The notes: a model not told the origin generated them from the letters alone. A DNA stretch of 64,000 bases from Acidobacteriota bacterium (GCA_029569255.1 JAKQUO010000028.1:1335-65334); one strand, 5' to 3'. Counted from the first letter of the stretch, positions 1,118 to 36,169 are shown. A program made the numbers and translations.

Positions 1118-1505
1118 CTTGCCGAATACGCCCCCTAACAAGGCCTTATATACAATCGATAGCCTCGCGCGGCCGCCACGAGGTTCGCACGGGCTCGGCA
1201 GCCGGCTGAGTCCTGGATTTCGCTTTCTATCCAGAAAGAGTCGAAGAGGAGCAATCAAGGCGTTCTCACGATGCCTGCGCGCGGGTCTCGCCCCCGGACC
1301 GGCGCAAAGAAAAAACCGATCGTTCAGGAGCCGGTCAGGGACAATCGGCGAACGTCCGAAAAATCATATAAGTAATTGATAATAAAGTAAATACAAGGAT
1401 TCTCGTATCCTGTTGAAAATAAACGCACAAGAGAGAACCGGACCCATGGCGGAAGGCGGGACGGGGCCGCTGGCGAAGAAAGCTGGACAGCCGGTCGTTT
1501 TCGCG

Positions 1506-1511
1506 TAGAAT
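1506..1511 (+). promoter_or_regulatory. -10 box TAGAAT 17 nt upstream of the permease start codon
   Basis: cgcgTAGAATgggcccggtgacgcgccATG. The TA(G/A)AATgggcc context recurs at 25749 and 40513. No Shine-Dalgarno sequence lies between the box and the ATG. Confidence 0.35.
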
Positions 1512-1528: not shown

Positions 1529-2929
1529 ATGCCCGCAGCGCCCGGCGACCGGGAACCTGACTTTCTCAGGCGGCTCGGCCTCCTGGACACCTCTTTCCTT
1601 GTCATCGGAGCGGTCGTCGGCTCGGGCATCTTCATGACCCCCGGTCTCATCGCCGCCGGACTGCCCTCGCCCGGCCTCCTGCTGGCCGCCTGGCTCGCCG
1701 GCGGGCTGATCACCCTCTGCGGGGCCCTGTCCTTCGCCGAGCTCGGCGCGATGTACCCGGAGGCGGGCGGGCAGTATGTCTACGTCCGCGAGGCCTATGG
1801 CCGGGGGGCGGCCTTCCTCTTCGGCTGGGCGTTCTTCGGCTTCATCATGTGCGGCGGGCTGGCCGCCTTGGCCGTCGCGTTCGCCGAGTTCCTCGGCTCC
1901 TTGGCCCCCGCGCTCTCGACGGGCCATGTCCTTGTCCGGGCGGAGCTCTTCGGCCTCTCCTTTTCCCTGTCCGCCGGCCAGATCGTCGCCGCCCTCGCCA
2001 TCCTCCTCCTGACCCTTGTCAATTCCTTCGGCATCCGTTCCGGCGCCACGGTCCAGAACGTCCTGACGGTCGTCCGCCTGGGCCTGGTCGCCGCCCTGAT
2101 CGGCCTGGGCGTCCTCTTCGGGACCAAGGCCGGGGCCTCGAACTTCGCGCCCCTCTTCCCGCCCGGCTTCTCCTTCCCGGCCGTCCTCAAGCCCTTCGGC
2201 CTGGCCCTCGTGGCCGTGTTCTGGACGTACGACGGCTGGTATTCCGTCAACTGCACGGCCGGGGAGGTCCGCGATCCCGGCCGGACCATCCCGCGCGGCC
2301 TGACGATCGGCGTCCTGGCCGTGACCGCGATCTACGTCCTGGTCAACCTCGTCTATCTCCTGGCCCTGCCCCTCGCCGAGCTCCGCGGCGTCGTCCGCGT
2401 CGGCGAGCTGGCCGCCTCGGCCCTGTTCGGGGGCGGCGGGGCGGCCCTCTTCGCCGCCCTGATCATGGTCTCCGTCTTCGGCTGCCTCGACGGAAACCTC
2501 ATCTTCGGCCCCCGGGTCTTCTACGCCATGGGCCGGGACGGCTGTTTCTTCCGGGCCATGGGCCGTCTGGGACGGCGGAGCCGCGTCCCCAACGCGGCCC
2601 TGTGGGGCCAGGCCGCCTGGTCGTCGGTCCTGTGCCTCTCGGGCACCTACGAATCGCTCTACGAGTACATGGTCTTCGCCCTGCTCGTGTTCTTCGCCGC
2701 GACCGGCCTGGCCGTCTTCGTCCTCCGCCGGCGCCGGCCCGGCGCCGTCCGCCCCTACAAGACCTGGGGCTATCCCGCCGTGCCGATCGTCTTCATCGCC
2801 GCGTGCCTGGCCGTTTTCGTCAGCATGGTCGTCGCGGCTCCGCTGAGAGCGCTCGCCGGCCTGGGCCTCCTCCTGGCCGGCGTCCCCGTGTATGTCCTTT
2901 GGCGCCGCCGCGCCCCCCGGCGGGCATAG
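1529..2929 (+). CDS. APC-superfamily amino-acid/amine permease (about 12 TM helices)
   Basis: 466 aa, very hydrophobic, with motifs typical of amino-acid permeases (GSGIFMTPG, FAELGAMYPEAGGQYVYV). It sits directly upstream of the corrinoid methyltransferase cassette. Confidence 0.85.
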   Translation: MPAAPGDREPDFLRRLGLLDTSFLVIGAVVGSGIFMTPGLIAAGLPSPGLLLAAWLAGGLITLCGALSFAELGAMYPEAGGQYVYVREAYGRGAAFLFGWAFFGFIMCGGLAALAVAFAEFLGSLAPALSTGHVLVRAELFGLSFSLSAGQIVAALAILLLTLVNSFGIRSGATVQNVLTVVRLGLVAALIGLGVLFGTKAGASNFAPLFPPGFSFPAVLKPFGLALVAVFWTYDGWYSVNCTAGEVRDPGRTIPRGLTIGVLAVTAIYVLVNLVYLLALPLAELRGVVRVGELAASALFGGGGAALFAALIMVSVFGCLDGNLIFGPRVFYAMGRDGCFFRAMGRLGRRSRVPNAALWGQAAWSSVLCLSGTYESLYEYMVFALLVFFAATGLAVFVLRRRRPGAVRPYKTWGYPAVPIVFIAACLAVFVSMVVAAPLRALAGLGLLLAGVPVYVLWRRRAPRRA

Positions 2930-2991
2930 GGCTTCCACGCGGATACGTTTTCGTTTAAGATGGGAGGACCGCAAGGCGGCGTGATCGCGCG

Positions 2992-4776
2992 ATGAACGAA
3001 CAGACCTGCACCGTCGAGATCCTGCCCGACCGGATCAAGGCGCGGGCCAAGGCCGGCGAGCTCCTGGCCGACGTCCTGGACCGGGCCGGGGTGCCGCTCA
3101 GCCTCTACTGTCACAAGCGGGGCGTCTGCGGCAAGTGCGCCGTGCGCGTCCTCAGCGGCGCCCTCCCCTTCCCCGCCGCCCTCGAGGCCGCCCTCCTCGA
3201 GGCCCGGGGGCTCGGGCCCGACCACCGGCTGGCCTGCCTCTACGAGGTCCGCGGCGACGTCGTCGTCGAGACCATCCCCGGCTCGCGGCCGGAGAGGGTC
3301 TCCGTGATCGAGGCCGGGACCGGCGCGGCCGTGATCGTCGATCCGTCCGTCAAGAAGCTCTCCCTGTCCCTGGAACGGCCCTCGCTCTATTCGCCCACGT
3401 CCATCGCCGACGCCCTCCGCGCGGCCCTGCGGACGCCGGGGCTCGTCCTGCCGCTGGCCGCGCTGGCCAAGCTCGGCGGAACGCCGGCCCTCGCCCCCTC
3501 CCGGCCCGTCACGGTCGTCCTCTACGAGGATCTCGAGGTCCTCGACATCGAGCCCGAGGAGGGGGGGAAGGAGATCTTCGGCCTGGCCGTCGACTTGGGC
3601 ACGACGACGGTCGCCGCCGAGCTGGTCGACCTGCGCGCCGGCAAGGTCGTCGACCGGGCCGCGTCGGTGAACGCCCAGGTCTCCTACGGGGCCGACGTCG
3701 TCTCGCGGATCACGTTCGCCTTCGAGAACCCCGACAACCTCCGCCGTCTCCGCCGCGCCGCCGTCCAGCTCATCAACGACATGGCCGGCGCGATGGCCCG
3801 CCGAAGCGGCGTCGCCCGTCACCGGATCTACGACGCCGTCGTGGCCGGCAACACGGCCATGAACCACATCCTCTCCGGAGTCCCCGTCGATTCGCTGGCC
3901 ATGGCCCCCTTCCACGCCGTGTTCTCGGCGCTCCCCGCGGTCGCCGCCGCCGATATCGGGCTGGCCCTCCACCCCCAGGCCCGGATGTACGTCGCCCCGA
4001 ACATCAAGAGCTTCGTCGGCGGAGACGTCGCGGCCGGCCTCGCCGCCTCCGGGTTCGCGGCCAAGGCCGGGACGGCGCTCTACATCGACCTGGGGACCAA
4101 CGGCGAGATCGTGCTCAAGCGGGGCCGGGACTTCGCGGCCACCTCCACGGCGGCCGGGCCGGCCTTCGAAGGCATGACCATCAGCTGCGGCATGCTGGCG
4201 GTGGCCGGGGCCGTCCACGCCGCGTCCTGGGACCACGGCTTCAAGCTCCGGACGATCGACGACCTCCCGCCCCAGGGCATCTGCGGGACGGGGCTCGTCG
4301 ACGTGCTGGCCACGGCCCTTCGCCGCGGCCTCCTCGGGAGGGACGGCCGGATCGTCGGTCCCGAGAAGAAGATCCGGCTGGCCGACCGCCTGGCCCTGAC
4401 CCAGCAGGACGTCCGCGACGTCCAGCTGGCCGTGGCCGCGATCCGCAGCGGGGTCCGGCTGATGCTGCGCGAATTCCGGATCGCCCCGGCCGACATCGAC
4501 CGGGTCGTCGTCGCCGGGGCCTTCGGGAGCTCCCTCGACATCGACAACGCCGTCTCGATCGGGCTCCTGCCCAACATCGCCGCGGACAGGATCTCCTTCA
4601 TCGGCAACGCCTCTCTCGCCGGGGCCCGCCTGCTCCTCCTCTCCCGCCCGGCCCGCCAGGCCGCCGAGGACCTGGCCGCGCGGATCTCCCTCGTCTCGCT
4701 GGCCACCCGGCCCGACTTCCAGGACACCTTCGTCCAAAGCCTCGAATTCGCGCCCTTCCCGGAAGGCGGGCCATGA
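2992..4776 (+). CDS. RACo-type reductive activator of corrinoid proteins (N-terminal plant-type 2Fe-2S ferredoxin domain plus ASKHA-fold ATPase, DUF4445-like)
   Basis: 594 aa. N-terminal Cys cluster YCHKRGVCGKCAV...LACLY, followed by the long ATPase body seen in ATP-dependent corrinoid activators (RamA/RACo family). Confidence 0.75.
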   Translation: MNEQTCTVEILPDRIKARAKAGELLADVLDRAGVPLSLYCHKRGVCGKCAVRVLSGALPFPAALEAALLEARGLGPDHRLACLYEVRGDVVVETIPGSRPERVSVIEAGTGAAVIVDPSVKKLSLSLERPSLYSPTSIADALRAALRTPGLVLPLAALAKLGGTPALAPSRPVTVVLYEDLEVLDIEPEEGGKEIFGLAVDLGTTTVAAELVDLRAGKVVDRAASVNAQVSYGADVVSRITFAFENPDNLRRLRRAAVQLINDMAGAMARRSGVARHRIYDAVVAGNTAMNHILSGVPVDSLAMAPFHAVFSALPAVAAADIGLALHPQARMYVAPNIKSFVGGDVAAGLAASGFAAKAGTALYIDLGTNGEIVLKRGRDFAATSTAAGPAFEGMTISCGMLAVAGAVHAASWDHGFKLRTIDDLPPQGICGTGLVDVLATALRRGLLGRDGRIVGPEKKIRLADRLALTQQDVRDVQLAVAAIRSGVRLMLREFRIAPADIDRVVVAGAFGSSLDIDNAVSIGLLPNIAADRISFIGNASLAGARLLLLSRPARQAAEDLAARISLVSLATRPDFQDTFVQSLEFAPFPEGGP

Positions 4777-5663
4777 CCCATCCCCTGCTCGAGCTGGCCG
4801 AGAGGCGGACCGTGCTCCTCGACGGCGCCATGGGGACCATGCTCATGGCCCGGGGCCTGGCGGTCGGCATGGCCCCGGAGATCTGGAACGTCGAGAGGCC
4901 CGACCTCGTCCGCGAGGTCCACGCGGCCTACTTCGCCGCCGGGGCCGATGTCGTCTCGACGAACAGCTTCGGCGGGACGCCGCTGAAGCTGGCCGCCCAC
5001 GGCCTGGAGGGCCGGGCCTATGAATTGAACCACGCCGCTGCCCGCCTGGCCCGGGAGGCCGCCCCGCCCGGCCGATTCGTCGCCGGCAGCGTCGGGCCGA
5101 CCGGGAAGTTCCTCAGGCCCCATGGCCCGTGCTCGGAGCAGGACCTCGAGGCCGCCTTCGCCGACCAGGTCCGCGGCCTGGCCGCCGGCGGGGTCGACCT
5201 CGTCTTGATCGAGACCCAGTACGACCTCCGCGAGGCCCTGGCCGCCGTCCGCGGGGCCCGGAGCGTCGCCTCGCTCCCCATCTTCGTGACCATGACCTTC
5301 AACGACACGCCCCGGGGCTTCTTCACCCTCATGGGCGACACGCCGGCCCGCGCCGCCGGCGAGCTCGAGAGGGCCGGGGCGGCGGCCTTCGGGGCCAACT
5401 GCACCCTGGCCGCCGACCGGATGGCCGCCTGCGTCCGGGCCTGCCGCGGGGCCATCGGCCTGCCCCTTGTCGCCCAGGCCAACGCCGGGCGGCCGGTCGC
5501 CGGAGAGGACGGCCGGGTCACGTACAGCCAAACCCTCGAAGACTACGTTCGCCATGTCCCGGACATCGTCCGCGCCGGCGCCTCGTTCGTCGGCGGCTGC
5601 TGCGGGACGGACCCGTCCTTCATCCGGGCCATGGCCGGGATCGTCGGAAAGGAGGCGCCATGA
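4773..5663 (+). CDS. Stand-alone homocysteine S-methyltransferase-domain protein (Pfam S-methyl_trans type; MetH N-terminal / BHMT / MmuM fold), zinc-dependent thiol methyltransferase
   Basis: 296 aa. The ATG at 4773 overlaps the upstream stop (ATGA). Zinc-ligand motifs GANCT and the C-terminal VGGCCGTDPSFIRA match the MetH Hcy-binding domain. The track shows it only as the tail of the larger 3135..5663 ORF in the same frame. Confidence 0.8.
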   Translation: MTHPLLELAERRTVLLDGAMGTMLMARGLAVGMAPEIWNVERPDLVREVHAAYFAAGADVVSTNSFGGTPLKLAAHGLEGRAYELNHAAARLAREAAPPGRFVAGSVGPTGKFLRPHGPCSEQDLEAAFADQVRGLAAGGVDLVLIETQYDLREALAAVRGARSVASLPIFVTMTFNDTPRGFFTLMGDTPARAAGELERAGAAAFGANCTLAADRMAACVRACRGAIGLPLVAQANAGRPVAGEDGRVTYSQTLEDYVRHVPDIVRAGASFVGGCCGTDPSFIRAMAGIVGKEAP

Positions 5664-6313
5664 CCGAATCGGAGCTTTACCCCCGGATGAGCGAGGCCAT
5701 CGTCGCCGGCGACCGGGCCGCGGCCGCCGCGCTGGCCCGGGACGCCGTGCGCCAAGGCCTCGACCTTCTCGAGGTCGTCGACAAAGGCTATGTCCCGGGC
5801 ATCCAGAAGGTCGGCGTTCTCTGGGAGCAGGGCGAGTATTTCCTGCCCGAGCTCATCAGCAGCGCCGAGGCCATGAAGGCGGCCATGGCCGTCATCGACC
5901 CCGAGCTCACAAAGCGGAACCTCGGCTCGCGCCCCGGCGGCCGGGTCGTCATCGGGACGGTCGAGGGCGACATCCACGACATCGGCAAGAACCTGGTCGC
6001 CTCGATGCTCCAGGCCGGCGGCTTCGACGTCCACGACCTGGGCGCCGACGTCAAGCTGGAGCGCTTCATCGACAAGGCCGAGGAGGTCGGGGCGGGGATG
6101 ATCTGCCTCTCCGCGCTCCTGACGACGACCATGACCAACCAGCGGCGCCTGATCGGGATGCTCCGCGACCGGGGCCTGCGCGGCAAGTACAAGGTCCTGG
6201 TCGGCGGGGCCCCGGCCAGCCGCAAGTGGGCCGAGGAGATCGGGGCGGACGGCTACGCCGAGAACGCCGTGGCCGCGGTCAAGCTGGCCAAGTCCCTGGC
6301 CGCCGGCGCGTGA
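5660..6313 (+). CDS. Corrinoid (cobalamin)-binding protein, with B12-binding helical cap plus Rossmann domain
   Basis: 217 aa. DxHxxG cobalamin-ligand motif (EGDIHDIGKN). The GGAGG RBS is 6 nt upstream, and the ATG overlaps the preceding stop (ATGA). The layout resembles MtmC/MtgC and the MetH B12 domain. Confidence 0.85.
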   Translation: MTESELYPRMSEAIVAGDRAAAAALARDAVRQGLDLLEVVDKGYVPGIQKVGVLWEQGEYFLPELISSAEAMKAAMAVIDPELTKRNLGSRPGGRVVIGTVEGDIHDIGKNLVASMLQAGGFDVHDLGADVKLERFIDKAEEVGAGMICLSALLTTTMTNQRRLIGMLRDRGLRGKYKVLVGGAPASRKWAEEIGADGYAENAVAAVKLAKSLAAGA

Positions 6314-6358
6314 AGGCCCGGCAGGCCCGCGGGACGCCGGGAACGAAAGGGGCCGGAC

Positions 6359-7831
6359 ATGATCGACGCGAAACGACCGAAGATCGAGCTTCTCAGCCGC
6401 GAGTTCGTCGACAAGATCGTCGATGAGGGATTCACGCTCCTCGAACGCCACGGCGTCATGGTCGAGAACGCCGAGGCCTTGGATCTCCTGGGCGGGGCCG
6501 GGGCGAGGGTCGACAAGAACGGCCAGCGGGCCTTCCCGGGCCGGGCGCTCGTCGAGGCCTGCCTGGCCGCGGCGCCGGCGTCGATCGAGCTCCGTGACCG
6601 CAGCGGCGCCCGCGCCTTCACCGTGGGCGGCGACGAGGTCCATTTCGACCCGGGCTCGGCGGCCGTGACCATGCTCGACCACGCCGCTCGAGCGGAGCGC
6701 CGGGCGGTGACGGCGGACGTCATCGCCTTCTACAAGCTCGTCGAGACCCTGGAGAACTTCCATTTCCAGAGCACCGGCCTCATCGCCGCGGACGTCCCGG
6801 CCGCCGTCAGCGACGCCTATCGCCTCTACCTGGGCCTCATCCTGTCGGAGAAGCCCTTCGTCACCGGCACCTTCCGGGTCGAGGGCTTCGGGCCGATGAA
6901 GGACATGCTGGCCGCCGTCCGCGGCGGCGAGGACGCCCTCGGGCGGGCCCCCCTGGCCGTCTTCGACGCCTGCCCCTCCCCTCCCCTGAAGTGGAGCGAC
7001 CTGACCGTCCGGAGCCTCATCGACGCGGCCCGGGCGGGCGTCCCCTCCGAGCTCATCCCGATGGGCATGACCGGGGCGACCTCCCCGGTCACGATCGCCG
7101 GGACGCTCGTCCAGCACGTCGCCGAGAACCTCAGCGGCCTGACGATCAGCCAGCTGGCCCGCAAGGGCGCGCCCGTCATCTTCGGCGGCTCGCCGTCGAG
7201 CTTCGACATGCGCAAGGGGACGACCCCGATGGGGGCGATCGAGACGATGATGATCGACGCCGCCTACGCCCAGATCGGCAAGGCCCTCAAGCTCCCGACC
7301 CACGCCTACATGGGCCTGAGCGACTCGAAGGTCAACGACCCGCAGGCCGGCTTCGAGACGGCCCTGGGCGCCGTGCTCGGGGCCCTGGCCGGGGTCAACG
7401 TCATCTCCGGGCCGGGCATGCTCGATTTCGAGAGCTGCCAGAGCTTGGAGAAGCTGGTCATAGACGACGGGATCTGCGCCATGGCCTACCGGCTGCTCGG
7501 GGGCATCGCCCAGCGCGACGAGCCCGTCGCCCTGGGCGTGTTCGAGGGCTTCACGGCCGGCATGTCGTTCCTGTCCCACCCGCACACGCGGCAGTGGTAC
7601 CGGAAGGAGCATCTGGGCGCCGGCCTCGCCGACCGGGACCCCTACGACGCCTGGGTCGCCGCCGGCCGGACCTCCATCGTCGACAAGGCCCACGCCGACG
7701 TCGCCCGCCGCCTCGAGAAATACGCCGCGCCGCCCCTCGATCCGGCCGTCCGCAAGGAGCTCGACCGGATCATGGGGGCCTACGCGAAGTCGGCGGGCCT
7801 CGGCGCGCTGCCTCTTCCCAAGGGCTTCTAG
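6359..7831 (+). CDS. MttB-superfamily methyltransferase (trimethylamine methyltransferase family), non-pyrrolysine member
   Basis: 490 aa, uninterrupted (no in-frame TAG). The length and many conserved blocks match the MttB/MtgB family (TIM barrel). Substrate unknown. Confidence 0.85.
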   Translation: MIDAKRPKIELLSREFVDKIVDEGFTLLERHGVMVENAEALDLLGGAGARVDKNGQRAFPGRALVEACLAAAPASIELRDRSGARAFTVGGDEVHFDPGSAAVTMLDHAARAERRAVTADVIAFYKLVETLENFHFQSTGLIAADVPAAVSDAYRLYLGLILSEKPFVTGTFRVEGFGPMKDMLAAVRGGEDALGRAPLAVFDACPSPPLKWSDLTVRSLIDAARAGVPSELIPMGMTGATSPVTIAGTLVQHVAENLSGLTISQLARKGAPVIFGGSPSSFDMRKGTTPMGAIETMMIDAAYAQIGKALKLPTHAYMGLSDSKVNDPQAGFETALGAVLGALAGVNVISGPGMLDFESCQSLEKLVIDDGICAMAYRLLGGIAQRDEPVALGVFEGFTAGMSFLSHPHTRQWYRKEHLGAGLADRDPYDAWVAAGRTSIVDKAHADVARRLEKYAAPPLDPAVRKELDRIMGAYAKSAGLGALPLPKGF

Positions 7832-14860: not shown

Positions 14861-16306
14861 ATGAAAGTCGCATTCCTCGCCTCCGAAGTCAACCCTTACG
14901 CCAAAACGGGCGGGCTGGCCGATGTGGCCGGGTCCCTGCCCAAATTCCTCGTCCGCCAGGGGGCCGAAGTCCGGACCTTCATGCCCCTCTACCGGGAGGT
15001 CCGGAAGAAGAGCCTGCCGCTCGAGCCGGTCCTCGACAAGGCCAAACTGACCATGGGGGGCCGGTCCATCCCCTACGCCGTCTTCGCCCACCGGGCCGAG
15101 GGCGTCACGACGTTCTTCGTCGACCACCCCGGCTATTTCGACCGGGACGCCCTCTACGGCACGCCGGCCGGCGATTACCCCGACAACGCCGAGCGCTTCG
15201 GCTTCTTCTCCCGGGCCGCCCTGGAGACGATGCGGGCCGTCGGCTTCCGGCCGGCGATTGTCCACGCCCACGACTGGCAGGCGGCGGCCGCCGTCGCCTA
15301 CCTCAGGTTCGTCCATGCCGGCGACCCCTTCTTCTCCGGCGCCCGCTCGGTCTTCACCATCCACAATCTGGCCTACCAGGGGCTGTTCGGGAAGGAGGTC
15401 CTGCCGGCGATCGGGCTCCCCGAGTCCCTCTTCAACATGAACGACCTCGAATTCTTCGGCCAGGTCAACACCCTCAAGGCCGGCATCCTCTACTCGACGG
15501 CGGTCACCACCGTCAGCCCGCGCTACAGCCGGGAGATCCAGACGCCCGAGTTCGGCTGCGGCCTGGACGGGCTGCTGCGGAGCCGGGCCGGCGTCCTCCA
15601 CGGCATCCTCAACGGCGTCGACTACCAGGACTGGGACCCGGCCACGGACCCCCTCATCCCGCGCAACTACGCCCCCGGCGACCTGGCCGGCAAGAAGGCC
15701 TGCCGCGAAGAGCTCGCCCGCCTCTTCGGCCTGGCTCTCCAGCCCGGCCGTCCGCTGGCCGGCATGGTGACGCGCCTGGCCGGGCAGAAGGGCCTCGACA
15801 TCGTCTGCGAGGCCCTCGAAGCGCTCCTCGGCCAGGGCCTGTCGCTCGTCATCCTGGGCACGGGCGACCGGAAGATCCAGGACTTCCTCGCCGCCGCCCA
15901 GAAAAAGCACGCCGCCCAGTTCGGGCTGAAGATCGCCTTCGACGAGAAGATCGCCCGCACGATCTACGCCGGGAGCGACATCTTCCTCATCCCCTCGCGC
16001 TACGAGCCCTGCGGCCTGACCCAGATGTACGCGATGAGGTACGGGACGGTCCCCGTCGTCCGGGCCACCGGCGGCCTCGACGACAGCGTCGAGGAGTTCG
16101 ACGCCGCGGCGGCGGCGGGCAACGGCTTCAAGTTCGCCGAGGCCGCTCCCGGGCCCCTGCTCGAGGCCTCGGCCCGGGCCGTCGCGGCCTTCGGCCGCCC
16201 GGCCGACTGGAGCGCGCTCGTCCGCAACGCCATGTCCGCGGACTTCTCCTGGGGCCGCTCGGCCGAGACCTACCTCGGCCTCTACGAGATGATCGCCGCT
16301 TCTTGA
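14861..16306 (+). CDS. glgA: Glycogen synthase (ADP-glucose type, GT5)
   Basis: MKVAFLASEVNPYAKTGGLADVAGSLP (KTGGL motif). 481 aa. Confidence 0.9.
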   Translation: MKVAFLASEVNPYAKTGGLADVAGSLPKFLVRQGAEVRTFMPLYREVRKKSLPLEPVLDKAKLTMGGRSIPYAVFAHRAEGVTTFFVDHPGYFDRDALYGTPAGDYPDNAERFGFFSRAALETMRAVGFRPAIVHAHDWQAAAAVAYLRFVHAGDPFFSGARSVFTIHNLAYQGLFGKEVLPAIGLPESLFNMNDLEFFGQVNTLKAGILYSTAVTTVSPRYSREIQTPEFGCGLDGLLRSRAGVLHGILNGVDYQDWDPATDPLIPRNYAPGDLAGKKACREELARLFGLALQPGRPLAGMVTRLAGQKGLDIVCEALEALLGQGLSLVILGTGDRKIQDFLAAAQKKHAAQFGLKIAFDEKIARTIYAGSDIFLIPSRYEPCGLTQMYAMRYGTVPVVRATGGLDDSVEEFDAAAAAGNGFKFAEAAPGPLLEASARAVAAFGRPADWSALVRNAMSADFSWGRSAETYLGLYEMIAAS

Positions 16307-16307
16307 C

Positions 16308-17336
16308 CTAAGGCTGCTTCAGGAACTGGGCCGCGGTCTCCGGCGGGACCGGATTGATGTAGAACCCCGTCCCCCATTCGAACCCGGCCATCTTCGTCAG
16401 GACGGGGATGATCTCCACGTGCCAGTGCGACTTCAGGTGGATGTCCGGCCAGCTCTTGAGCGAGAGGGCCGGGTTGGGGGCCTGGTGGAGGACCATGTTG
16501 AAGGGCGGGTCGCCGACCGTTTCCTTGAGCCGGGTCAGGACGGCCTTCAGGATTCCGGCCAGGGCCAGGAGCTCGTCCTCGCCGGCGTCGGTGAAGAAGG
16601 CCGAGTGCCGCCGCGGGAAGACGGCCATCTCGAACGGCGAGCGCGAAGCGTAGGGCGCGATGGCCGTGAAATGGGCGTTGCGGGCCACCAGCCTCTTCCC
16701 CGCCGCCTCCTCCTCCCGCAGGACGCGGCAGAAGACGCACTCCTTGAAGGTCCGGAACATCCGGTCGGCGCCGTAGATTTCCTCCTTGATGCGCTTGGGG
16801 ACGATCGGCGTCGCCACCAGCTGCGAGTGCGGGTGGCTCAGCGAGGCCCCGGCCTCCCTGCCCTTGTTCTTGAAGATCTGGACGTACTGGTAATGGAGGT
16901 CGCGTTCGATGGCCCGGATCCGGAGCTGGAAGACCCTGAACACGTCGCGGATATGGGCGACGGCGAGGTCCCCGAGCTCGAGGGCGTGGTCCGGGTTCTC
17001 GATGACGACCTCGTGGACGCCGCGGCCCTCCATCGACTGGAAGGCGCCCTCCGTGGCCCGGGGCGGCGGCGGACCGGGGGTCAGGGCCGGGAACTTGTTG
17101 GGCACGACCCGGACCGTCCAGCCCGGCGTGTCGGGGCCCGTCCCCGCTTTCCGCAGGGCGAAGACCTCGGGCGGCGTCTTCGCCTCGTTGCCTTCGCAGA
17201 ACGGACAGAACCCGGGCGCCTCCGGGGGCGGGGCCGCGCCTCCGGCCGGCCGGAAGTCGTCGGGGCGCTTGCTGCGTTCGGTGGCGATGATGACCCATCG
17301 CCCGCTGACCAGGTCTTTTCTCAGCTCCGACATCAT
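16308..17336 (-). CDS. Galactose-1-phosphate uridylyltransferase-family (GalT/HIT-like) nucleotidyltransferase
   Basis: CPFCEGNE zinc knuckle and HPHSQ active-site motif. The ATGATG start overlaps the stop of the receiver gene. Its position in a glycogen operon makes an NDP-glucose phosphorylase/uridylyltransferase role plausible. Confidence 0.75.
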   Translation of the reverse strand: MMSELRKDLVSGRWVIIATERSKRPDDFRPAGGAAPPPEAPGFCPFCEGNEAKTPPEVFALRKAGTGPDTPGWTVRVVPNKFPALTPGPPPPRATEGAFQSMEGRGVHEVVIENPDHALELGDLAVAHIRDVFRVFQLRIRAIERDLHYQYVQIFKNKGREAGASLSHPHSQLVATPIVPKRIKEEIYGADRMFRTFKECVFCRVLREEEAAGKRLVARNAHFTAIAPYASRSPFEMAVFPRRHSAFFTDAGEDELLALAGILKAVLTRLKETVGDPPFNMVLHQAPNPALSLKSWPDIHLKSHWHVEIIPVLTKMAGFEWGTGFYINPVPPETAAQFLKQP

Positions 17337-17689
17337 TCCCCCAGCAGCTGCTTGATCCGGGCCTTGAGCTCTTCGAGCGAGGCGGACTTGACGACGTAGG
17401 CGTCGGCCGCCCAGGTCATGAAGTCCTCCTTGTAGCTCTGGTAGGCCGAGTTGATGATGATGGGGATGTCCTTGCGCAGGCCCATGATCTCGGTGATGAG
17501 CTCGATGCCGTTCTTGCCCGGCATGCGGATGTCGGTGACGATGAGGTCGAAGGACCCCTCCCGGAGGGCGGCCAGGGCCGCCTCCGCGTCCGTCACCGCC
17601 GTGATCTCGTAGCCCTCTCCCCGGAGCTCCTCCTCGTAGAGCAGGCAGAGGGGCTTCTCGTCCTCGACGAGCAGGATCCTTTTTGTCAT
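17333..17689 (-). CDS. Single-domain response regulator (CheY-like receiver)
   Basis: MTKRILLVEDEKPLCLLYEEELRGEGYEITAVTDAEAALAALREGSFDLIVTDIRMPGKNG (D..D...K receiver signature). 118 aa. The upstream part of the track ORF is artefact. Confidence 0.85.
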   Translation of the reverse strand: MTKRILLVEDEKPLCLLYEEELRGEGYEITAVTDAEAALAALREGSFDLIVTDIRMPGKNGIELITEIMGLRKDIPIIINSAYQSYKEDFMTWAADAYVVKSASLEELKARIKQLLGE

Positions 17690-19035
17690 GACGTCGACTC
17701 CCTTTCCTGGCTGATGAATTGCAATTTGAAGACCGAGCCCCGGCCGACCCGGCTGAGGACCTCGACCGACCCGCCGCAGGTGTCCATGACCCGCTTGATG
17801 AACGGCAGGCCCAGGCCCATGCCCTTGTCCTTGGTCGTGAAGAAGGGCTGGAAGAGATGGGCCTTGGCCGGATTGGTGAGGCCCCGGCCCGTGTCCCGGA
17901 CGGACAGGGCGAAGGCCGTCGGGGACCTTCGGTAGGTGCGGACCGAGATGGTCCCGCCCGGCGGGGTGGCGTCGAAGGCGTTGTCGATGAGATTGCGCAG
18001 GACCTCGCCGAAGGAGGTGGGGTCGCAGAGGATCTTGGGCGGGCAGGCGTCCACCTTGGCGTCGAGCGTGTACGCCTTGGCCCGGCTCTGGACCTGCGGG
18101 CTGTCCAGCACCTCGGCGATGGCCGGCGCGGGATCGAAGAAGACGGGCTCCTTGAGGCTGACCTTGAGGAAGTGGCCCATCTGGTAGATGATGACCTCGA
18201 GCCGGCGGATCTCGTCCCGGATGATGTTCAGGTTGCGGACCCTCTTCTCCTCCGGCAGGTCGGGCTTGAGGAGCTGGTCGGTGAAGCCGCCGATGGCCAC
18301 GATGGGATTGCGGAGCTGGTGGGTGACGAACATGGCCATCTCGCCCATGGCCGCCATCTTCTCCATGTTGAGGAGCCGGCGGTGGAGCGTCGTCGAGTGG
18401 ATGTAGTTGCCGGCCATCAGGCCGCAGATGCCGGCCAGCTTGATGTCGGAGGGCGAGATCGGCGTCCGGGTGATGGCGTTGTCGAGGATGATCTCGCCGA
18501 CGACGTCGTCGCCGGCGACGAGCGGGACGCAGAGGAACTCGTCGACGCCGATGATGTTGAGGAAGCGGCGGTCGACCCGGGGCTCCTGGGCCGCCTCGCG
18601 GACGTGGAGGATCTCCTTGCGGCCGGCCACGGAGGCCGGGATGAGGGCCTTCGGGTCGTTGGCCGGGTAGACCAGGCCCCGGAGGCGGGCGCTGAGCGTG
18701 TCCGCGTTCTTGTTGACCAGGGCCCGGTTGTGCTCGAGGATCTCGACATAGCCGATGCCCGGCGTCGACAGGACCTCCCAGATGAGCCCGGCCTCCTCGG
18801 CCGAGCGCGGCCCCAGCCACATCTCGCCTCTGAGGCGGTCGTCGCTCTTGAGGAAGAGCATGGCCCGGTTGAAGCCGACGCCCGAGCCCGAGGTCAGGGC
18901 GGTCAGGACGACGAGGAGGTTGTCCTCGAGCGAGAAGGGCTGGAAGAAGCTCTGGGAGATGATGGACAGGAGCATCAGCTCGCGGGGCGCCTCCCGCTCG
19001 AAGCTCGGGGAGAGGATGTTGTAGGTCTCGATCAT
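17686..19035 (-). CDS. Sensor histidine kinase with GAF sensor domain (GAF, HisKA, HATPase_c)
   Basis: H-box FVTHQLRNP. N/G boxes (NLIDNAFDAT, RDTGRGL, GMGLGL). Start MIETYN at complement 19033..19035 overlaps the glgC stop (ATGA). Its stop overlaps the receiver start. Confidence 0.8.
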   Translation of the reverse strand: MIETYNILSPSFEREAPRELMLLSIISQSFFQPFSLEDNLLVVLTALTSGSGVGFNRAMLFLKSDDRLRGEMWLGPRSAEEAGLIWEVLSTPGIGYVEILEHNRALVNKNADTLSARLRGLVYPANDPKALIPASVAGRKEILHVREAAQEPRVDRRFLNIIGVDEFLCVPLVAGDDVVGEIILDNAITRTPISPSDIKLAGICGLMAGNYIHSTTLHRRLLNMEKMAAMGEMAMFVTHQLRNPIVAIGGFTDQLLKPDLPEEKRVRNLNIIRDEIRRLEVIIYQMGHFLKVSLKEPVFFDPAPAIAEVLDSPQVQSRAKAYTLDAKVDACPPKILCDPTSFGEVLRNLIDNAFDATPPGGTISVRTYRRSPTAFALSVRDTGRGLTNPAKAHLFQPFFTTKDKGMGLGLPFIKRVMDTCGGSVEVLSRVGRGSVFKLQFISQERESTS

Positions 19036-20216
19036 TCGGAGGACCATCCCTTGGGGACCACCCGGACGCCGGCCCGGCTCGTCTTGAAGTTGCGGGCGTC
19101 CTTGTCGGCGTCGAAACCGATCTCGAAGCGTTCGGGGACCGCGGCGGACTTGTCGATGATGACCTTGCGCAGCCGGGCGCCCCGGAGGACGCGGACGTTG
19201 TCGAAGACGATCGAGTCGACGATGTCCGCTCCGGGCTCGACCCGGACGCCGGCGCCGACGATCGAGTTGACGATCCGGCAGTCGCTGAACGAGCCGCCGG
19301 CGCCGACGATCGAGTTCCGGATGTCCCCGCCGGCCACGAACGTCGGCGGGTACTGGGGCTTGTAGGTCCGGACCGGCCAGGCCGGGTCGCGCAGGATGAG
19401 CGGCGGCGCCGGCGAGAGGAAGGCCATGTTGGCCTCCCAGTAGGCGTCGATCGTGCCGATGTCCTCCCAGTAGTCGTCGAACGTGTAGGCGAAGACGCGG
19501 TGGCTCTTGATGAGGGCCGGGATGATGTCGCGGCCGAAGTCGTGCGTGCTCCTTGACGACCGGGCGTCCCGGAGCAAGGCCTTGATCAGGACCGCCGTCT
19601 TGAAGAGATAGACGCCCATGGAGATGAGGCTTTTGCCCGCGTCCCACGGCGTCGCGAAGGGTTTCTTGGGCTTCTCCATGAACTCGACGATCCGCCGCTC
19701 GCCGTCGACGCCGATGACGCCGAAGCGGGAGGCCTCGCTCACGGGGATGGTCCGGGTCATGATCACGGCGTCCGCGTCCGCCTGGCCGAAGAAGAGGAGC
19801 AGCTTGCGGTAGTCGGAGCTGTAGATGTGGTCGCCGGACAGGACCAGGACGGCCTCGGGGCTCTCCTGCTGGATGGTGTAGATGTTCTGGAGGACGGCGT
19901 CGGCCGTGCCCGCGTACCAGCTGTCGCTGACCCGGCCCTGGGCCGGGAGGGACAGGATGTAGTCGCCGCTCTCGGCATGGAAGATGTTCCAGCCGTTGAA
20001 GATGTGGCGGTCGAGGGAGAGCGACTTGTACTGGGTCAGGAGGGCGATCCGCCGCAGGCCCGAGTTCAGGGCGTTGGACAGGCTGAAGTCGATGATCCGG
20101 TAGGCCCCGAGGAAGGGGACGGACGGCTTGGCCCGGTCGCGCGTCAGCGGATAGAGACGCTCGCCCTTGCCCCCGCAGAGGACCATGGTCAGGGTCTTCT
20201 TAGATAACAGTTCCAT
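19032..20216 (-). CDS. glgC: Glucose-1-phosphate adenylyltransferase
   Basis: MVLCGGKGERLYPLTRDRAKPSVPFLGAYRIIDFSLSN plus C-terminal left-handed beta-helix repeats. An alternative start 30 nt downstream is possible. Confidence 0.85.
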   Translation of the reverse strand: MELLSKKTLTMVLCGGKGERLYPLTRDRAKPSVPFLGAYRIIDFSLSNALNSGLRRIALLTQYKSLSLDRHIFNGWNIFHAESGDYILSLPAQGRVSDSWYAGTADAVLQNIYTIQQESPEAVLVLSGDHIYSSDYRKLLLFFGQADADAVIMTRTIPVSEASRFGVIGVDGERRIVEFMEKPKKPFATPWDAGKSLISMGVYLFKTAVLIKALLRDARSSRSTHDFGRDIIPALIKSHRVFAYTFDDYWEDIGTIDAYWEANMAFLSPAPPLILRDPAWPVRTYKPQYPPTFVAGGDIRNSIVGAGGSFSDCRIVNSIVGAGVRVEPGADIVDSIVFDNVRVLRGARLRKVIIDKSAAVPERFEIGFDADKDARNFKTSRAGVRVVPKGWSSE

Positions 20217-21855
20217 CGGGCATCACGATCTCTTTGAAGATGCGGTCGTCGGACTCGAAGGCCTCGAGGAGCGAGACCTCGGCGGGGCCGAGGGCCCGGC
20301 CGGCCTCGAGCCAGCCGAGGAGGGTCAGGGCCCTGTCGAAGTGCTCGGCGGCCCGGCTCTCGGCGTAGTCGCGGGCCGACCGGGTCGAGACGAGGAACGG
20401 CCAGTCGGAGCTCTCGAGCAGGTATTTCTCGCGGAAGAACTGGCGGAGGAGCCGCCGGTCGAGGCCGGCCAGCCGGGGCGTCAGGGCCGCCGCGGCCGCC
20501 TCGACGCGGTAGATCTTCTCCCAGATCCAGGCCGTGTCCCGGTTGAGCCAGTTCCCGTGGAAGCCGCCCTGGCCCCAGGACCCCTCGGGGAGGGCGACGG
20601 ACGCGGCCGGCGGCATGGCCTCGAGCGCGGCCCCGGCGGTCGCCGGCCGGACCGGGCCCGCCTGGAGCTTCTTGACGACCCGGTAGAGCCACTCGGGCCC
20701 TTCGAACCACCAGTGGCCGAAGAGCTCGGTGTCGTAGAGGGCGGCGACCGTCCCCGCCTCCCTCGCCGCGAGCGTCGCCTCGAGGGCCGAGACGAAGTGG
20801 GCGGCGTGCTCTTCCGCCCGGGCCGCGGTCCGGTCCGGCTCGTAAGGCTCTTTGAGGCCCAGGTCGGCCTCGCCCGAGGTGACGCGCCAGTAGCGCATCC
20901 CCCCCGGGAAGCGCTTCTTGTGGAACTCCAGGTAGTCGCCGTCGCCGGGATAGCCCGTGTCCCGGCTCCAGACCTGCGCGCCGGAGACGTCGTCCCGGGC
21001 GAAGAACGGGAGTCCCGAGGGAAGGGCCGCGTAGGGGGAATAGGGGTCGCGGGACGGCGCCTCGGCCGGCCGGACGGCCTCCCGGGCCTTCTCCCAGAGG
21101 AGCCTCAAGCCGGGAAAACGGTCGAGGTAGACGCCCTCGGTCTCCCCGCCCCTGAGAAGGTGCGCGTCGACGAAGAAATAGCGGAGGCCCTCCTGGCCCA
21201 GGATCTCGTCGAGGCCGAGCCGGGGATGGGCGTCGCCGTCGCCGACCGGGCTCTTCCAGGCGTAGCCCGGCCGGTAGGCGCACTCGGGGAGCCAGAAGCC
21301 GAGGGCCTCCCGGCCGAAATATCTCTTGTACGTGTGGAGGCCCTGGCGGACCTGCTGGCGGACCGTCTCGTCCCGCGAAAGAAGGGCGAGATAGGCGTGC
21401 GTCGCCGCCGAGGTCAGGACTTCGATGTGGCCGCGGTCCTGGAGGGAGCGGAACGCGCCGAGAATGTCCCCGCCGGCGCGGCCGTGGAAGCTCGCCCGGA
21501 GCTCCCGGTACCAGCCCTCCCAGAACGCCGCGAGGTCCCGGAGGCCGCTCTCCCCCGCGCGCTCGAAGTGGGCCCGGTCGTCGGCCGCGGCGTCCTCCTT
21601 CATCCTCAGGTACGCGTCGAAGCCCCCGGCGAAGACGGGGTCCTTGAGCTGCTCCATGAGGACCGGCGTGAAGCTGACGCTCGTCCGGGCGGAGATGCCC
21701 TCGGCGGCCAGGCGCTCGAAGACGTCGAGGAGCGGCAGATAGGTCTCCGCGGCGGCCTCGTAGAGCCAGTCCATCCCGTGCGGCCAGCTGCCGTGGTCCA
21801 GGACGTACGGGATGTGGCTGTGGAGGACGAGCGAGAAATACTTACCGGGCATCAC
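20200..21855 (-). CDS. GH57-family glycoside hydrolase (1,4-alpha-glucan branching enzyme type)
   Basis: 551 aa. N-terminal FSLVLHSHIPYV and the GH57 catalytic region. Overlaps neighbouring genes by 14-17 nt. Confidence 0.8.
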   Translation of the reverse strand: MMPGKYFSLVLHSHIPYVLDHGSWPHGMDWLYEAAAETYLPLLDVFERLAAEGISARTSVSFTPVLMEQLKDPVFAGGFDAYLRMKEDAAADDRAHFERAGESGLRDLAAFWEGWYRELRASFHGRAGGDILGAFRSLQDRGHIEVLTSAATHAYLALLSRDETVRQQVRQGLHTYKRYFGREALGFWLPECAYRPGYAWKSPVGDGDAHPRLGLDEILGQEGLRYFFVDAHLLRGGETEGVYLDRFPGLRLLWEKAREAVRPAEAPSRDPYSPYAALPSGLPFFARDDVSGAQVWSRDTGYPGDGDYLEFHKKRFPGGMRYWRVTSGEADLGLKEPYEPDRTAARAEEHAAHFVSALEATLAAREAGTVAALYDTELFGHWWFEGPEWLYRVVKKLQAGPVRPATAGAALEAMPPAASVALPEGSWGQGGFHGNWLNRDTAWIWEKIYRVEAAAAALTPRLAGLDRRLLRQFFREKYLLESSDWPFLVSTRSARDYAESRAAEHFDRALTLLGWLEAGRALGPAEVSLLEAFESDDRIFKEIVMPDGTVI

Positions 21856-23815
21856 TTTCCCTGAGCGCGACCGACAAGCGTTGCGTGGTGCCGGGGGCCA
21901 GCTCCAGCGGCCAGACCGGACAGAGACAATAACCCTGGTGGATTATATCAAAACCCTCCTCGGATTGGGAGAGCGTCCGCAGGGGGAACGCCCACAGGGC
22001 CGCGGCCCCGGCCGGCTCGAAGAGGAGCGCGCCACCGTAGAGGGACACCCGGCCGTCGTCCCGGAGCTCGTACTCGTGGGGAAAGGCCAGCAGGTTCCAC
22101 TCGGAGCCGAAGAGAAGGGAGAGAGGCCGGCCGGCCCCGTTCTCGATCTCGATGTCGACGCGGAGCGCCCCGCCGGCGCTGGCGATCGTCTTGCGGAGGA
22201 CGATGGGCCGGCCGCCCTCCTCCCCCCGGACCGAGCCGCGCCGCTCCAGCCGGAGCGACGGGCCCGCGATGGCCGGCGTGAAAGCGCCGCCGACGAAATC
22301 GCCCAGCTCCTCGAAGGCGGCCGAGCGGAACGCCTCGGCCGTCGTGCCCGGGGCGAAGACATGGTCGATGAGCGAGAGGCGCGGATAGAGGTCGTAGCGC
22401 AGGAGCTCGGCGGTGTCCGGAGGGAGCCTCTTGGCGAGCTCGTGGATGCTCTTCCCCGTCCCGCCCTCCCCTTCCCCGTCCTTCGCGCCCTGCCGGTGGT
22501 AGGCCTCCGGCCGCCGGCCGAGGACGTCGGAGATGTTCCGCGAGGCGGGCCGGTGGTCGATCTCGACCAGGGCGCCGCCGGCGGAGGGCTTGACCATCAG
22601 GCCGAACGCGGCGTCCCGGTAGACCAGCTCCCGGAACCCGTCCCCGTCGTAGTCGAGCGTGATCCAGCCCGGCGGGTCGGGCGTCCGCTTCTCGGCCTCG
22701 AGGAGATGGTGATAGGCGGCCTCCCGGAGATGGGGCAGGTAGAGCCCCCCGAAGACGCCGTGCCAGTACGGGTCGTTGCACTGGCCCCGGTAGAGGTGCC
22801 TCAGCCCCTCTCCGGGCGCCCCGGCGGCGCGGAGGCCGTCCGAGACCATGACCATGCGCTTGTGAAGCCGGTTGGCCTCGGGATACTTGCGCAGGAAGTC
22901 CCGGAAGAACCCGCCCCGGAGGAAGCGCCGGGCCTCGGGCGGGACGCCGGCCTTGAGCCGGGCGAGCGCCTCCTGGTCCTCGGGTTCGAGGACCCACTCC
23001 GTCATCTCCTCGTACGACGCCGGGGGCAGGTAGATCCGCGCGGCCGGGGGGTTCGTGTCCAGGAACTCGGAGAAGGAGACCGTCCGGATGCCCCGGTCTT
23101 CGACATGGGCCAAGAAGGACCGCAGCCAGCCGCCGTCGTAGACCCGGGCGCGGGTGCCGGGCCAGAGCCCGAACTTCTCCCCGTCGTCGCCGAGGATGGC
23201 CGTCCCCCCGGCGTCGTGGATGGCCCGCAGCCGGGCGTCGACGTCGCCGAGGGGATGGAACGGGACGAGGTAGCGGAGCGCCTTGTCGACCGGGAAGACC
23301 CGGAGCGTCCGGCCCTCCTCCTCGGTGATGTAGCTCGCGCCGAGGTCGCGGACGCCGGCGCAGCGGAAGTGCTCCTCGTCGAGGAGCGTGTATTCGAGGC
23401 CGGCCTCGGCCAGGACCTTGGGGAGATGGGGCTCCCAGACGCGCTCCGTGAGCCAGAGGCCGCGCGGCCGCTGGCCGAAGCTCTCGCGGATGAAGTCGTT
23501 CATCATCCTCAGCTGGCCGGCCCGGTCGGCCTCGGGGATGAGGGACAGGACCGGCTCGTAGAAGCCGCCGCCGAGGAGCTCGACCTGGCCGCGGCCGGCG
23601 AGCTCCCGCACGAGGTCCCAGCAGCCCCTCTCGTTCTTCTCCATGTGCTCCCAGAGCGGTCCGGAGAAGTGGAGGGCGAAGCGGAACCCGGGATGGCCGG
23701 CCAGGACCTCGAGGAACGGCCGGTAGCAGGCGTCGAAGGCCGCCTTGACGACGTGATCGAAGTTGCCGACGGGCTGGTGGTTGTGGACCGCGAACAGGAA
23801 GAGGCGGCGGCTCAT
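21842..23815 (-). CDS. GH57-family glycoside hydrolase (alpha-amylase / 4-alpha-glucanotransferase type)
   Basis: 657 aa. LFLFAVHNHQPVGNF N-terminus typical of GH57. Confidence 0.8.
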   Translation of the reverse strand: MSRRLFLFAVHNHQPVGNFDHVVKAAFDACYRPFLEVLAGHPGFRFALHFSGPLWEHMEKNERGCWDLVRELAGRGQVELLGGGFYEPVLSLIPEADRAGQLRMMNDFIRESFGQRPRGLWLTERVWEPHLPKVLAEAGLEYTLLDEEHFRCAGVRDLGASYITEEEGRTLRVFPVDKALRYLVPFHPLGDVDARLRAIHDAGGTAILGDDGEKFGLWPGTRARVYDGGWLRSFLAHVEDRGIRTVSFSEFLDTNPPAARIYLPPASYEEMTEWVLEPEDQEALARLKAGVPPEARRFLRGGFFRDFLRKYPEANRLHKRMVMVSDGLRAAGAPGEGLRHLYRGQCNDPYWHGVFGGLYLPHLREAAYHHLLEAEKRTPDPPGWITLDYDGDGFRELVYRDAAFGLMVKPSAGGALVEIDHRPASRNISDVLGRRPEAYHRQGAKDGEGEGGTGKSIHELAKRLPPDTAELLRYDLYPRLSLIDHVFAPGTTAEAFRSAAFEELGDFVGGAFTPAIAGPSLRLERRGSVRGEEGGRPIVLRKTIASAGGALRVDIEIENGAGRPLSLLFGSEWNLLAFPHEYELRDDGRVSLYGGALLFEPAGAAALWAFPLRTLSQSEEGFDIIHQGYCLCPVWPLELAPGTTQRLSVALRESDAR

Positions 23816-24913: not shown

Positions 24914-24917
24914 GGGG

Positions 24918-33934: not shown

Positions 33935-34100
33935 CCTGGATTATTCGCGGATCGGGACGGCCCTCGGATGCGAGGCCCGAGGGGTGAAGCTGTCCTCTTC
34001 GGCACTGCGAACCCCCGGGAACGAAGCGGATGGGGGCCGGATCGGTTCGCCCGGAGGGTGAAAACGCCCGACGGGGGGCCGGGCATGTCCGGCCGCCGGG
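33935..34100. repeat. Dispersed intergenic repeat, copy C (inverted relative to copy A)
   Basis: Starts right after the serA stop. Its reverse complement aligns with 7856..7985 over ~130 nt with few substitutions. Carries the same CCCTCGG...CCGAGGG hairpin and a GGCCGGGCATGTCCGGCC near-palindrome. Confidence 0.7.
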
Positions 34101-34137
34101 GGGCGCGAGCGCCTGCCTATGTCTATTTGGCCCGTTC

Positions 34138-34146
34138 TGCTAAAAT
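34138..34146 (+). promoter_or_regulatory. Extended -10 promoter TGcTAAAAT, ending 7 nt before the ATG (leaderless mRNA predicted)
   Basis: cTGcTAAAATagcccccATG. The same gcTAAAATag-N6-ATG arrangement occurs at 54053..54072. Confidence 0.45.
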
Positions 34147-34153
34147 AGCCCCC

Positions 34154-35305
<1,152 letters not shown>

Positions 35306-36160: not shown

Positions 36161-36169
36161 GAGCGCATT

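Follow-up and report, generated by a model that had tools for sequence, protein, structure and literature searches.

A five-gene corrinoid operon of Candidatus Aminicenantes as a candidate disassembled methionine synthase

The stretch of DNA analysed here, called the window, comprises 64,000 nucleotides from an Acidobacteriota bacterium (GCA_029569255.1, JAKQUO010000028.1:1335-65334). Five co-directional genes at positions 1529-7831 of its plus strand encode a permease, a RACo-type reductive activator, a homocysteine methyltransferase module, a corrinoid protein and a non-pyrrolysine member of the MttB superfamily. The operon is real and probably functional. The explanation that we favour, with moderate confidence, is a disassembled cobalamin-dependent methionine synthase, in which an MttB-family enzyme would replace the methyl-tetrahydrofolate (methyl-THF) module in cis, a MetH-type module would demethylate the corrinoid protein and the RACo protein would repair it. 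Methionine would probably be made from a methylated amine, and not from methyl-folate.

What the sequence shows is the order of the genes, their domains and motifs, how far they are conserved and the families to which they belong; from these we infer every catalytic step, as well as which substrate donates the methyl group, what accepts it and which way it flows, as follows. The MttB homologue (MT1) would transfer a methyl group from a methylated amine to the Co(I) of the separate corrinoid protein. This donor would not be glycine betaine, and is probably none of the acidic quaternary amines used by the characterised members of the superfamily. The MetH-type zinc enzyme (MT2) would then move the methyl group off methyl-Co(III) and onto homocysteine, giving methionine and Co(I), and RACo would re-reduce oxidised Co(II) by means of its 2Fe-2S cluster and ATP. 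For the permease, which is of the L-type amino acid transporter (LAT) type, an amino acid of the methionine/homocysteine family is a more probable cargo than the methyl donor.

Composition of the operon

Translation of the open reading frames (ORFs) placed all five genes exactly where the original prediction had put them, and its parts list was borne out by the Pfam domains. The first gene (1529-2929) encodes a LAT-like amino-acid permease of the APC superfamily with 466 residues (PF13520 AA_permease_2, 201 bits), and the second (2992-4776) a RACo/RamA-type reductive activator of 594 residues (Fer2 PF00111, RACo_linker PF17650, Raco_middle PF17651 and RACo_C_ter PF14574, 226 bits). These are followed by the stand-alone MetH-type homocysteine methyltransferase module, MT2, of 296 residues (4773-5663; PF02574 S-methyl_trans, 242 bits), a corrinoid protein of 217 residues consisting of a B12 cap and a Rossmann domain (5660-6313; B12-binding_2 PF02607 and B12-binding PF02310), and the non-pyrrolysine MttB-superfamily substrate:corrinoid methyltransferase, MT1, of 490 residues (6359-7831; PF06253 MTTB, 305 bits). 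Three of the genes had been described as joined by ATGA overlaps; two such overlaps were found, one at 4773-4776 (ccATGAcc), where the stop codon of the RACo gene meets the start codon of the homocysteine methyltransferase gene, and one at 5660-5663, where the latter gene ends and the corrinoid protein gene begins. A spacer of 45 nt separates the corrinoid protein gene from the MttB gene. Upstream, the ParB and ParA genes run divergently on the opposite strand, and downstream a beta-CASP nuclease gene converges on the MttB gene; the operon therefore consists of exactly five genes.

Among structures in the PDB, the homocysteine methyltransferase matched MetH of Thermus (8g3h, 167 bits) and of T. 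maritima (1q7m, 153 bits) more strongly than MmuM (5dml, 94 bits) or BHMT (70 bits), and its score against the NCBIfam MmuM model, 120 bits, is below the cut-off of 215. By these scores the module in the methyl-acceptor slot is of the MetH type, as had been proposed, and not an MmuM or a BHMT. Because its closest relatives are the homocysteine modules of MetH, it resembles the type of module that takes its methyl group from methylcobalamin. The GANCT and GGCCGT motifs named in the original prediction, as well as the DxHxxG motif of the corrinoid protein, were all read in the translations. Like MetH, the PF02574 module contains three cysteines, C210 (GANCT), C276 and C277 (GGCCGT), which do not vary among 43 homologues and have their aligned counterparts in the cysteines of GINCSL and GGCCGT in T. 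maritima MetH; we take them to be the zinc ligands. Residues common to the homocysteine pocket of MetH (DGAMGT, IET..D, NC and GGCCGT) are also conserved in the window module. BHMT, bacterial Bmt and MmuM have the same PF02574 fold and the zinc-thiolate activation of homocysteine that is predicted here, but they methylate directly from betaine, S-methylmethionine or S-adenosylmethionine (SAM) without a corrinoid, whereas the window gene sits between the genes for a corrinoid activator and a corrinoid protein.

The corrinoid protein carries its DxHxxG motif as D104-I-H106-D-I-G109. It scored 222.4 bits against TIGR02370 (methyltransferase cognate corrinoid protein), above the cut-off of 215.3, and 231 bits against the MtgC-like NCBIfam model, compared with only 129 bits for the B12 region of MetH. 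By family model it is a member of the methylamine-type cognate corrinoid family, so that the system as a whole is, in its family placements, a chimera of a methylamine-type donor side and carrier with a MetH-type acceptor side. With MetH it has in common a homocysteine-binding zinc barrel, a B12 cap, a His-on DxHxxG Rossmann domain and, as predicted, the transfer from methyl-Co(III) to homocysteine. It differs from MetH in that the modules are separate proteins, the pterin domain and the SAM activation domain are lacking, and a TIGR02370 corrinoid protein takes the place of the MetH B12 domain. The PF00809 module of MetH is absent from the operon and from the 64-kb window.

The activator shows the complete RACo/RamA architecture of a 2Fe-2S ferredoxin domain, a linker, a middle domain and a C-terminal ASKHA domain, each recognised by Pfam. 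Ferredoxin-domain cysteines C40, C46, C49 and C82 and the ASKHA motifs DLGTTT and DLGTNGE were read in its translation. It scored 393 bits against the AcsV-like model and 157 bits against the RamA-like model, both under the respective cut-offs. The SAM-binding reactivation domain PF02965 was not detected in the window genes by Pfam, nor in the first 20 kb by a hidden Markov model (HMM) of the activation domain built for this analysis; the RACo protein would fill its role, with a predicted ATP-dependent reduction. Among the loci examined in relatives (designated by L-numbers), a RACo gene and a PF02965-like activation domain occur in one operon in a few Aminicenantes (L020, L037 and L053), and L012 has the activation domain with no RACo detected.

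In the MttB homologue the PF06253 match is full-length, covering residues 4-470. In the PDB it is about equally distant from MtgB of D. hafniense (208 bits) and MttB of M. barkeri (190 bits). The translation is free of internal stops, in agreement with the reported lack of an in-frame amber codon, and Leu320 aligns with pyrrolysine 334 (X in chain 7xcl). With its model match, no in-frame UAG and an ordinary residue at the pyrrolysine position, the protein belongs with the non-pyrrolysine members of the superfamily. Systems built on such enzymes, namely MttB/MttC/MtbA of methanogens, MtgB/MtgC/MtgA, and MtpB, MtcB, MtyB and MthB with MtqC/MtqA, have in common with the window an MttB-superfamily MT1, a cognate corrinoid protein and a RamA/RACo-type activase. 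In the methanogen three-component systems the methyl acceptor is a thiol, coenzyme M (CoM). As MT2 these three-component systems use either a CoM methylase of the UroD family or a THF methyltransferase that binds pterin, whereas the MT2 of the window is a PF02574 protein.

Glycine betaine is held in MtgB by residues Y97, R312, H348 and F356, as defined by mutagenesis and a substrate-bound crystal structure, and R312 is reported to be kept throughout the characterised members, whose substrates are all acidic quaternary amines (PMC13080624). In pairwise alignments these four positions correspond to S100, H315, S350 and E358 of the window protein, and none of the four residues is kept; where characterised bacterial members retain R312 and the aromatic pair, His, Ser and Glu are found in the window. 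The score of the window protein against TIGR02369, 364 bits, also falls short of the cut-off of 525, and the protein does not classify as an MtgB. The window-type MttB clade, at 48-100% identity, retains S100, H315 and E358, including proteins of Zixibacteria and Bathyarchaeia, and the E358 position is Ile in a subclade of 43-46% identity. This programmatic check across the clade covers S100, H315 and E358; the assignment of S350 comes from the pairwise alignments only. Since S100, H315 and E358 are kept and R312 is absent, the donor is probably a conserved and specific substrate, neither glycine betaine nor an acidic betaine. The label 'methylamine-driven' in the original prediction was therefore overstated, as the window protein is without every experimentally defined glycine-betaine-binding residue.

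Three related operons contain, beside the main MttB gene, a second MttB paralogue of 25-27% identity with other pocket residues (L011, 3529-4950; L025, 12228-13649; L012, 4641-6065). The presence of this divergent paralogue suggests that several methyl donors may be able to feed one corrinoid protein.

Conservation and genomic neighbourhoods in relatives

The host is a member of Candidatus Aminicenantes, as identical or near-identical PF02574 copies are so named by NCBI, and more than 120 PF02574 protein clusters at 67% identity or above are Aminicenantes wherever they are named. The full arrangement of ParB-ParA, permease-RACo-methyltransferase-corrinoid protein-MttB and beta-CASP gene, with intact genes, is found on metagenome contigs carrying 100% and 67% identical orthologues. 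An orthologue of 78% identity has the same gene order, but the assembly shows its MttB gene in fragments. The operon is present in about 20 GTDB species. This conservation argues for function and not decay, in line with the earlier claim. On a 1.06-Mb contig of an ENA assembly (L005, 11582-13056), frame breaks divide the orthologous MttB gene into five pieces and the permease gene is interrupted too; these breaks seem more likely to be assembly indel errors than a true pseudogene.

A survey of gene neighbourhoods, the synteny comparison that the original prediction had called for, was made with one genome per GTDB species and an alignment of eight sequences as the query. It yielded 80 loci with a stand-alone methyltransferase of the window type, which were annotated with purpose-built HMMs and spot-checked by Pfam, and neighbours were counted within 5 kb of the methyltransferase. 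An MttB-family gene was present at 34 of the 80 loci, accompanied by a corrinoid protein gene at 28. RACo was a neighbour at 21 loci, the MetH-type activation domain (PF02965) at 15 and a pterin-binding gene at five, and 30 loci had none of these neighbours. Pterin-binding and MttB genes were never found together (0/80), and the 34 MttB-linked loci were free of pterin-binding genes throughout the flanking sequence retrieved, up to 9 kb to either side.

Clusters of MttB, corrinoid protein and methyltransferase genes also occur in other lineages, at least seven in all and one of them archaeal; among them are Zixibacteria, Desulfobacterota, a metagenome-assembled genome of Pseudomonadota, Melainabacteria and Bathyarchaeia. 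The Aminicenantes arrangement is (permease-)RACo-methyltransferase-corrinoid protein-MttB; in most clusters outside this group the MetH-type activation domain PF02965 replaces RACo, and the order in Zixibacteria and Bathyarchaeia is corrinoid protein-methyltransferase-activation domain-MttB. The MttB proteins of these last clusters are 48-50% identical to that of the window and have S100, H315 and E358 in common with it. Desulfobacterota have an MttB of a distant clade (28% identity) followed by corrinoid protein and methyltransferase, and Melainabacteria have the same arrangement with an MttB of 23% identity. A shorter form, methyltransferase-MttB(-activation domain), with no corrinoid gene detected, is seen in Verrucomicrobiia, Acidobacteriota, Polarisedimenticolia and Dongiaceae. 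Other contexts were methyltransferase-pterin module, MTHFR-methyltransferase, permease-methyltransferase and the methyltransferase alone. When the methyltransferases are placed in a neighbour-joining tree (no support values), the tree follows taxonomy, and the contexts vary inside Aminicenantes. This suggests that one orthologous homocysteine module has moved between neighbourhoods, and not that distinct paralogues exist.

The permease is present in the closest orthologous operons. Its best NCBIfam match, at 211 bits and well under the cut-off, is an L-type amino acid transporter subfamily, and it scored 27.6 bits against the S-methylmethionine permease model, for which the cut-off is 716. The same APC permease, together with the homocysteine methyltransferase, is found at the ParAB locus of three low-G+C Aminicenantes (L029, 7479-9885; L030; L082), and no RACo, corrinoid protein or MttB gene was detected near the pair in any of them. 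L030 is the sole firm case, since less than 1 kb of sequence is available downstream of the methyltransferase in L029 and L082. The pair may represent either the ancestral state or a reduction. As it pairs with the methyltransferase in relatives without MttB nearby, the permease is a poor pointer to an imported methylamine; it appears to travel with the homocysteine module and not with the donor module. A dedicated permease had been put forward as a sign that the cassette works, and this argument is weak for the same reason.

Source of the methyl group and competing readings

The original prediction knew of no described pathway with this wiring. Such a pathway has in fact been proposed: in Ca. 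Electryoneota and 'diverse bacteria', Williams et al. 2022 (PMC9324843) report that the gene of a non-pyrrolysine MtgB/MttB homologue is clustered with those of a homocysteine S-methyltransferase, a corrinoid protein and an activation protein, and they advance as a genomic hypothesis a novel corrinoid-dependent synthesis of methionine, with the donor unnamed. The window operon has the three core genes and an activator in one cluster, and agrees with the Williams-type cluster in the core modules and the proposed function. As described there, the two differ in the kind of activator, which is a stand-alone SAM-binding PF02965 domain in the published cluster and an ATP-dependent 2Fe-2S RACo in the window, and in the leading LAT-type permease. 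The PF02965 version of the cluster was confirmed in L051, L065, L067 and L086, and the clusters found in Zixibacteria and Bathyarchaeia are of the Williams type. New relative to the published cluster would be that the activator is a RACo, that a permease is included, that all parts stand in one tight operon and that the host belongs to Aminicenantes. The compact set of five genes with its own activator would be a handy one for reconstitution and so for a test of the 2022 hypothesis. Engineered methyl transfer from glycine betaine through a corrinoid to a thiol has been described (PMC13618148).

A related wiring has been demonstrated genetically in Ruegeria pomeroyi, in which MtgB, MtgC, MtgD and MtgE link glycine-betaine demethylation to methionine synthesis (Mausz et al. 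2025, PMC12478193). In that organism MtgC and the pterin module MtgD are needed for both processes, and MtgE is a PF02574 protein (PMC12478193). Price et al. 2018 (PMC5764234) described a three-part MetH in Phaeobacter inhibens, made up of PF02574, PF00809 and corrinoid proteins and reactivated by a ferredoxin/DUF4445 RamA-like protein. The window resembles these Ruegeria and Phaeobacter systems in its separate MttB-family donor enzyme, corrinoid protein, PF02574 module and RamA-like activator, and on domain architecture the counterparts of MtgB, MtgC, MtgE and the RamA-like component are all present. MtgBCDE, in contrast, includes the essential pterin subunit MtgD and a DUF1638 protein, its genes are mostly dispersed with mtgE usually away from mtgBCD, and its donor is glycine betaine, whereas the window has neither a pterin nor a DUF1638 gene, is organised as a single operon and lacks the glycine-betaine-binding residues. 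A counterpart of MtgD was found neither in the window nor at the 34 MttB-linked loci.

The strongest alternative is a shared hub of the Ruegeria type. The corrinoid protein would have several partners, and a pterin module encoded elsewhere would supply the methyl group of methyl-THF for methionine synthesis and would also accept the methyl group from MttB for one-carbon metabolism, with direct flow from MttB to homocysteine minor or incidental; the operon would do no more than bring the hub together with a single optional donor. We consider this a possible though less than probable account, to which appreciable weight is given. It draws support from several observations that at the same time count against direct synthesis of methionine from a methylated amine. 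MtgD is essential for methionine synthesis in Ruegeria, and the model of the authors runs through methyl-THF and not from MtgB to MtgE directly (PMC12478193). Stand-alone pterin modules are frequent in other Aminicenantes, with or without an adjoining homocysteine methyltransferase. The neighbours of the homocysteine methyltransferase vary within one orthologous group (none, permease, pterin module, MTHFR or MttB), which would fit a shared housekeeping module equally well. The window also encodes folate enzymes: formiminotransferase-cyclodeaminase (FTCD; 47653-49332, +) and AICAR transformylase (AICARFT)/archaeal-type IMP cyclohydrolase (23834-25649, -) indicate that the organism uses folates. 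Together with an S-adenosylhomocysteine hydrolase (43487-44740, -), they imply that homocysteine recycling in a methyl cycle and folate metabolism are both present. The second, divergent MttB paralogue of three related operons likewise fits a hub with several donors. Further points to be set against the direct route are that a pterin module, MetH or MetE may lie outside the 64-kb window, that the pterin module of one complete genome (CP070825.1) stands apart from any homocysteine methyltransferase, that genome having none among the matches listed, and that the function of the window-type MttB clade is itself read from sequence.

The distribution of pterin modules speaks against the hub. Window genes were called from codon-position G+C (GC3/GC2), domain matches and gene calls on metagenome contigs, as the DNA is 70% G+C and has antisense shadow ORFs. 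Pfam scans of the roughly 40 called genes, run as concatenated queries, gave no match to PF00809, PF02007, PF02219 or MetE, and reading by eye of the ORFs in all remaining gaps of the window revealed no pterin-binding, MtrH, MTHFR or MetE gene. The absence of a pterin-binding gene, noted earlier, thus holds for these 64 kb, compared with 4.3-4.4 Mb in related complete genomes, but it cannot be extended to the genome, as relatives carry pterin modules at another locus. That locus is the junction between the NifS and DUF4416 genes, followed by AsnS, RimO, PgpA and CinA, which is a variable module site in several Aminicenantes. It holds the methyltransferase alone in L027, the methyltransferase with a stand-alone pterin module in L034, L035 and L089, and the pterin module alone in L088 (the complete genome CP070825.1). 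The window has the same neighbourhood at 31890-40522, with NifS at 33968-35305 and DUF4416 at 35428-35970, and the 122 bp of the junction (35306-35427) contain no gene. As this junction is empty, the genome is without a pterin module at the usual place of its relatives, and its homocysteine module lies inside the MttB operon instead. Split methionine-synthase modules thus appear to move between two loci in Aminicenantes. The lack of a pterin gene at the 34 MttB-linked loci also argues against the hub, as does, weakly, the finding that the list of pterin-module matches has five contigs in common with the list of L035-type methyltransferases and none with that of the window type. Were the hub correct, the MtgBCDE principle would extend from aerobic marine Proteobacteria to anaerobic Acidobacteriota.

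If instead the direct route from a methylated amine to homocysteine operates, it would constitute a cobalamin-dependent but folate-independent synthesis of methionine. Methionine supply and B12 demand would be tied to methylated amines in the anoxic sediments and digesters where Aminicenantes abound, and a large orphan clade of MttB proteins, found in a number of bacterial phyla and in one archaeal class or more, would gain its first function. A more far-reaching version is speculative, and we regard it as unlikely: the operon would be the sole methionine synthase of the lineage, with no folate-binding module, and the MttB clade that lacks R312 and the aromatic pair, from Aminicenantes to Zixibacteria and Bathyarchaeia, would be a new methyl-donor class acting on an environmental methylated amine or an endogenous N-methyl compound. 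With an environmental amine, methionine synthesis would hang on an external methyl donor; with an endogenous one, cobalamin enzymes would be fed by an N-methyl compound for which no such role is known so far.

Two other readings have very little probability. In E. coli, mmuPM is a pair of a permease and a PF02574 protein, and the pairing seen at the ParAB locus of L029, L030 and L082 recalls it; on this account permease and PF02574 protein would import S-methylmethionine (or use SAM) and methylate homocysteine directly, independently of cobalamin, and RACo, corrinoid protein and MttB would form a separate system with its acceptor module elsewhere. It is very improbable, given the stronger similarity of the PF02574 protein to MetH than to MmuM, the very low score of the permease against the S-methylmethionine permease model, the ATGA overlaps of the methyltransferase gene with both the RACo and the corrinoid protein genes, and its constant place between these two in about 20 species. 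Zinc-dependent thiol methyltransferases can be reversible in the Mts systems of methanogens, but the idea that the acceptor is a thiol other than homocysteine, or that methionine or a methyl-thioether is demethylated onto the corrinoid as by MtsA, with no methionine synthase, is likewise very improbable: the residues of the MetH homocysteine pocket are conserved, MttB-family enzymes are known only as methyl donors to Co(I), and two methyl-donating modules without an acceptor would leave the methyl group no outlet.

Upstream region and other genes of the window

A promoter-like site, TGGACA-16-TAGAAT, was found by consensus scan at 1484-1511 (+), with matches at 10 of 12 positions, and ends 17 nt before the permease start codon. 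In an alignment of 14 orthologous upstream regions, a -10-like block, C.TA.AAT, is kept near this start codon. Rfam gave no family in the 750-bp spacer at gathering thresholds, nor in positions 770-1560 at E values up to 5. A riboswitch or other ligand-responsive leader RNA was considered and dropped, because Rfam was negative and the 14-region alignment contained only the -10-like box and a palindrome near parA.

A 16-bp palindrome, TGTCGGCNNGCCGACA, occurs in two exact copies (888-903 and 1100-1115) in the spacer that separates parA from the permease gene and is richer in AT, compared with a chance expectation of 0.03 per window. It is kept in the orthologous spacers of other Aminicenantes, with the consensus TGTCGGC..GCC GACA. 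As the parAB genes adjoin, the palindrome may serve as a parS-like site specific to the lineage, or else as an operator.

Elsewhere in the window, a glycogen cluster at 14861-23815 comprises a GlgA-type starch synthase, a GalT-like protein, GlgC, a GH57 branching enzyme and a GH57 amylase/4-alpha-glucanotransferase; it is broken at 17333-19020 (-), where a response regulator and a histidine kinase with a GAF domain are encoded. In the region 54380-59310, genes for hydantoinase/oxoprolinase A and B precede two minus-strand genes, one for a short NusG-like paralogue (about 57996-58430) and one for a carbon-nitrogen hydrolase. The gene for a tRNA with the anticodon CAU lies at 62283-62356 (-).

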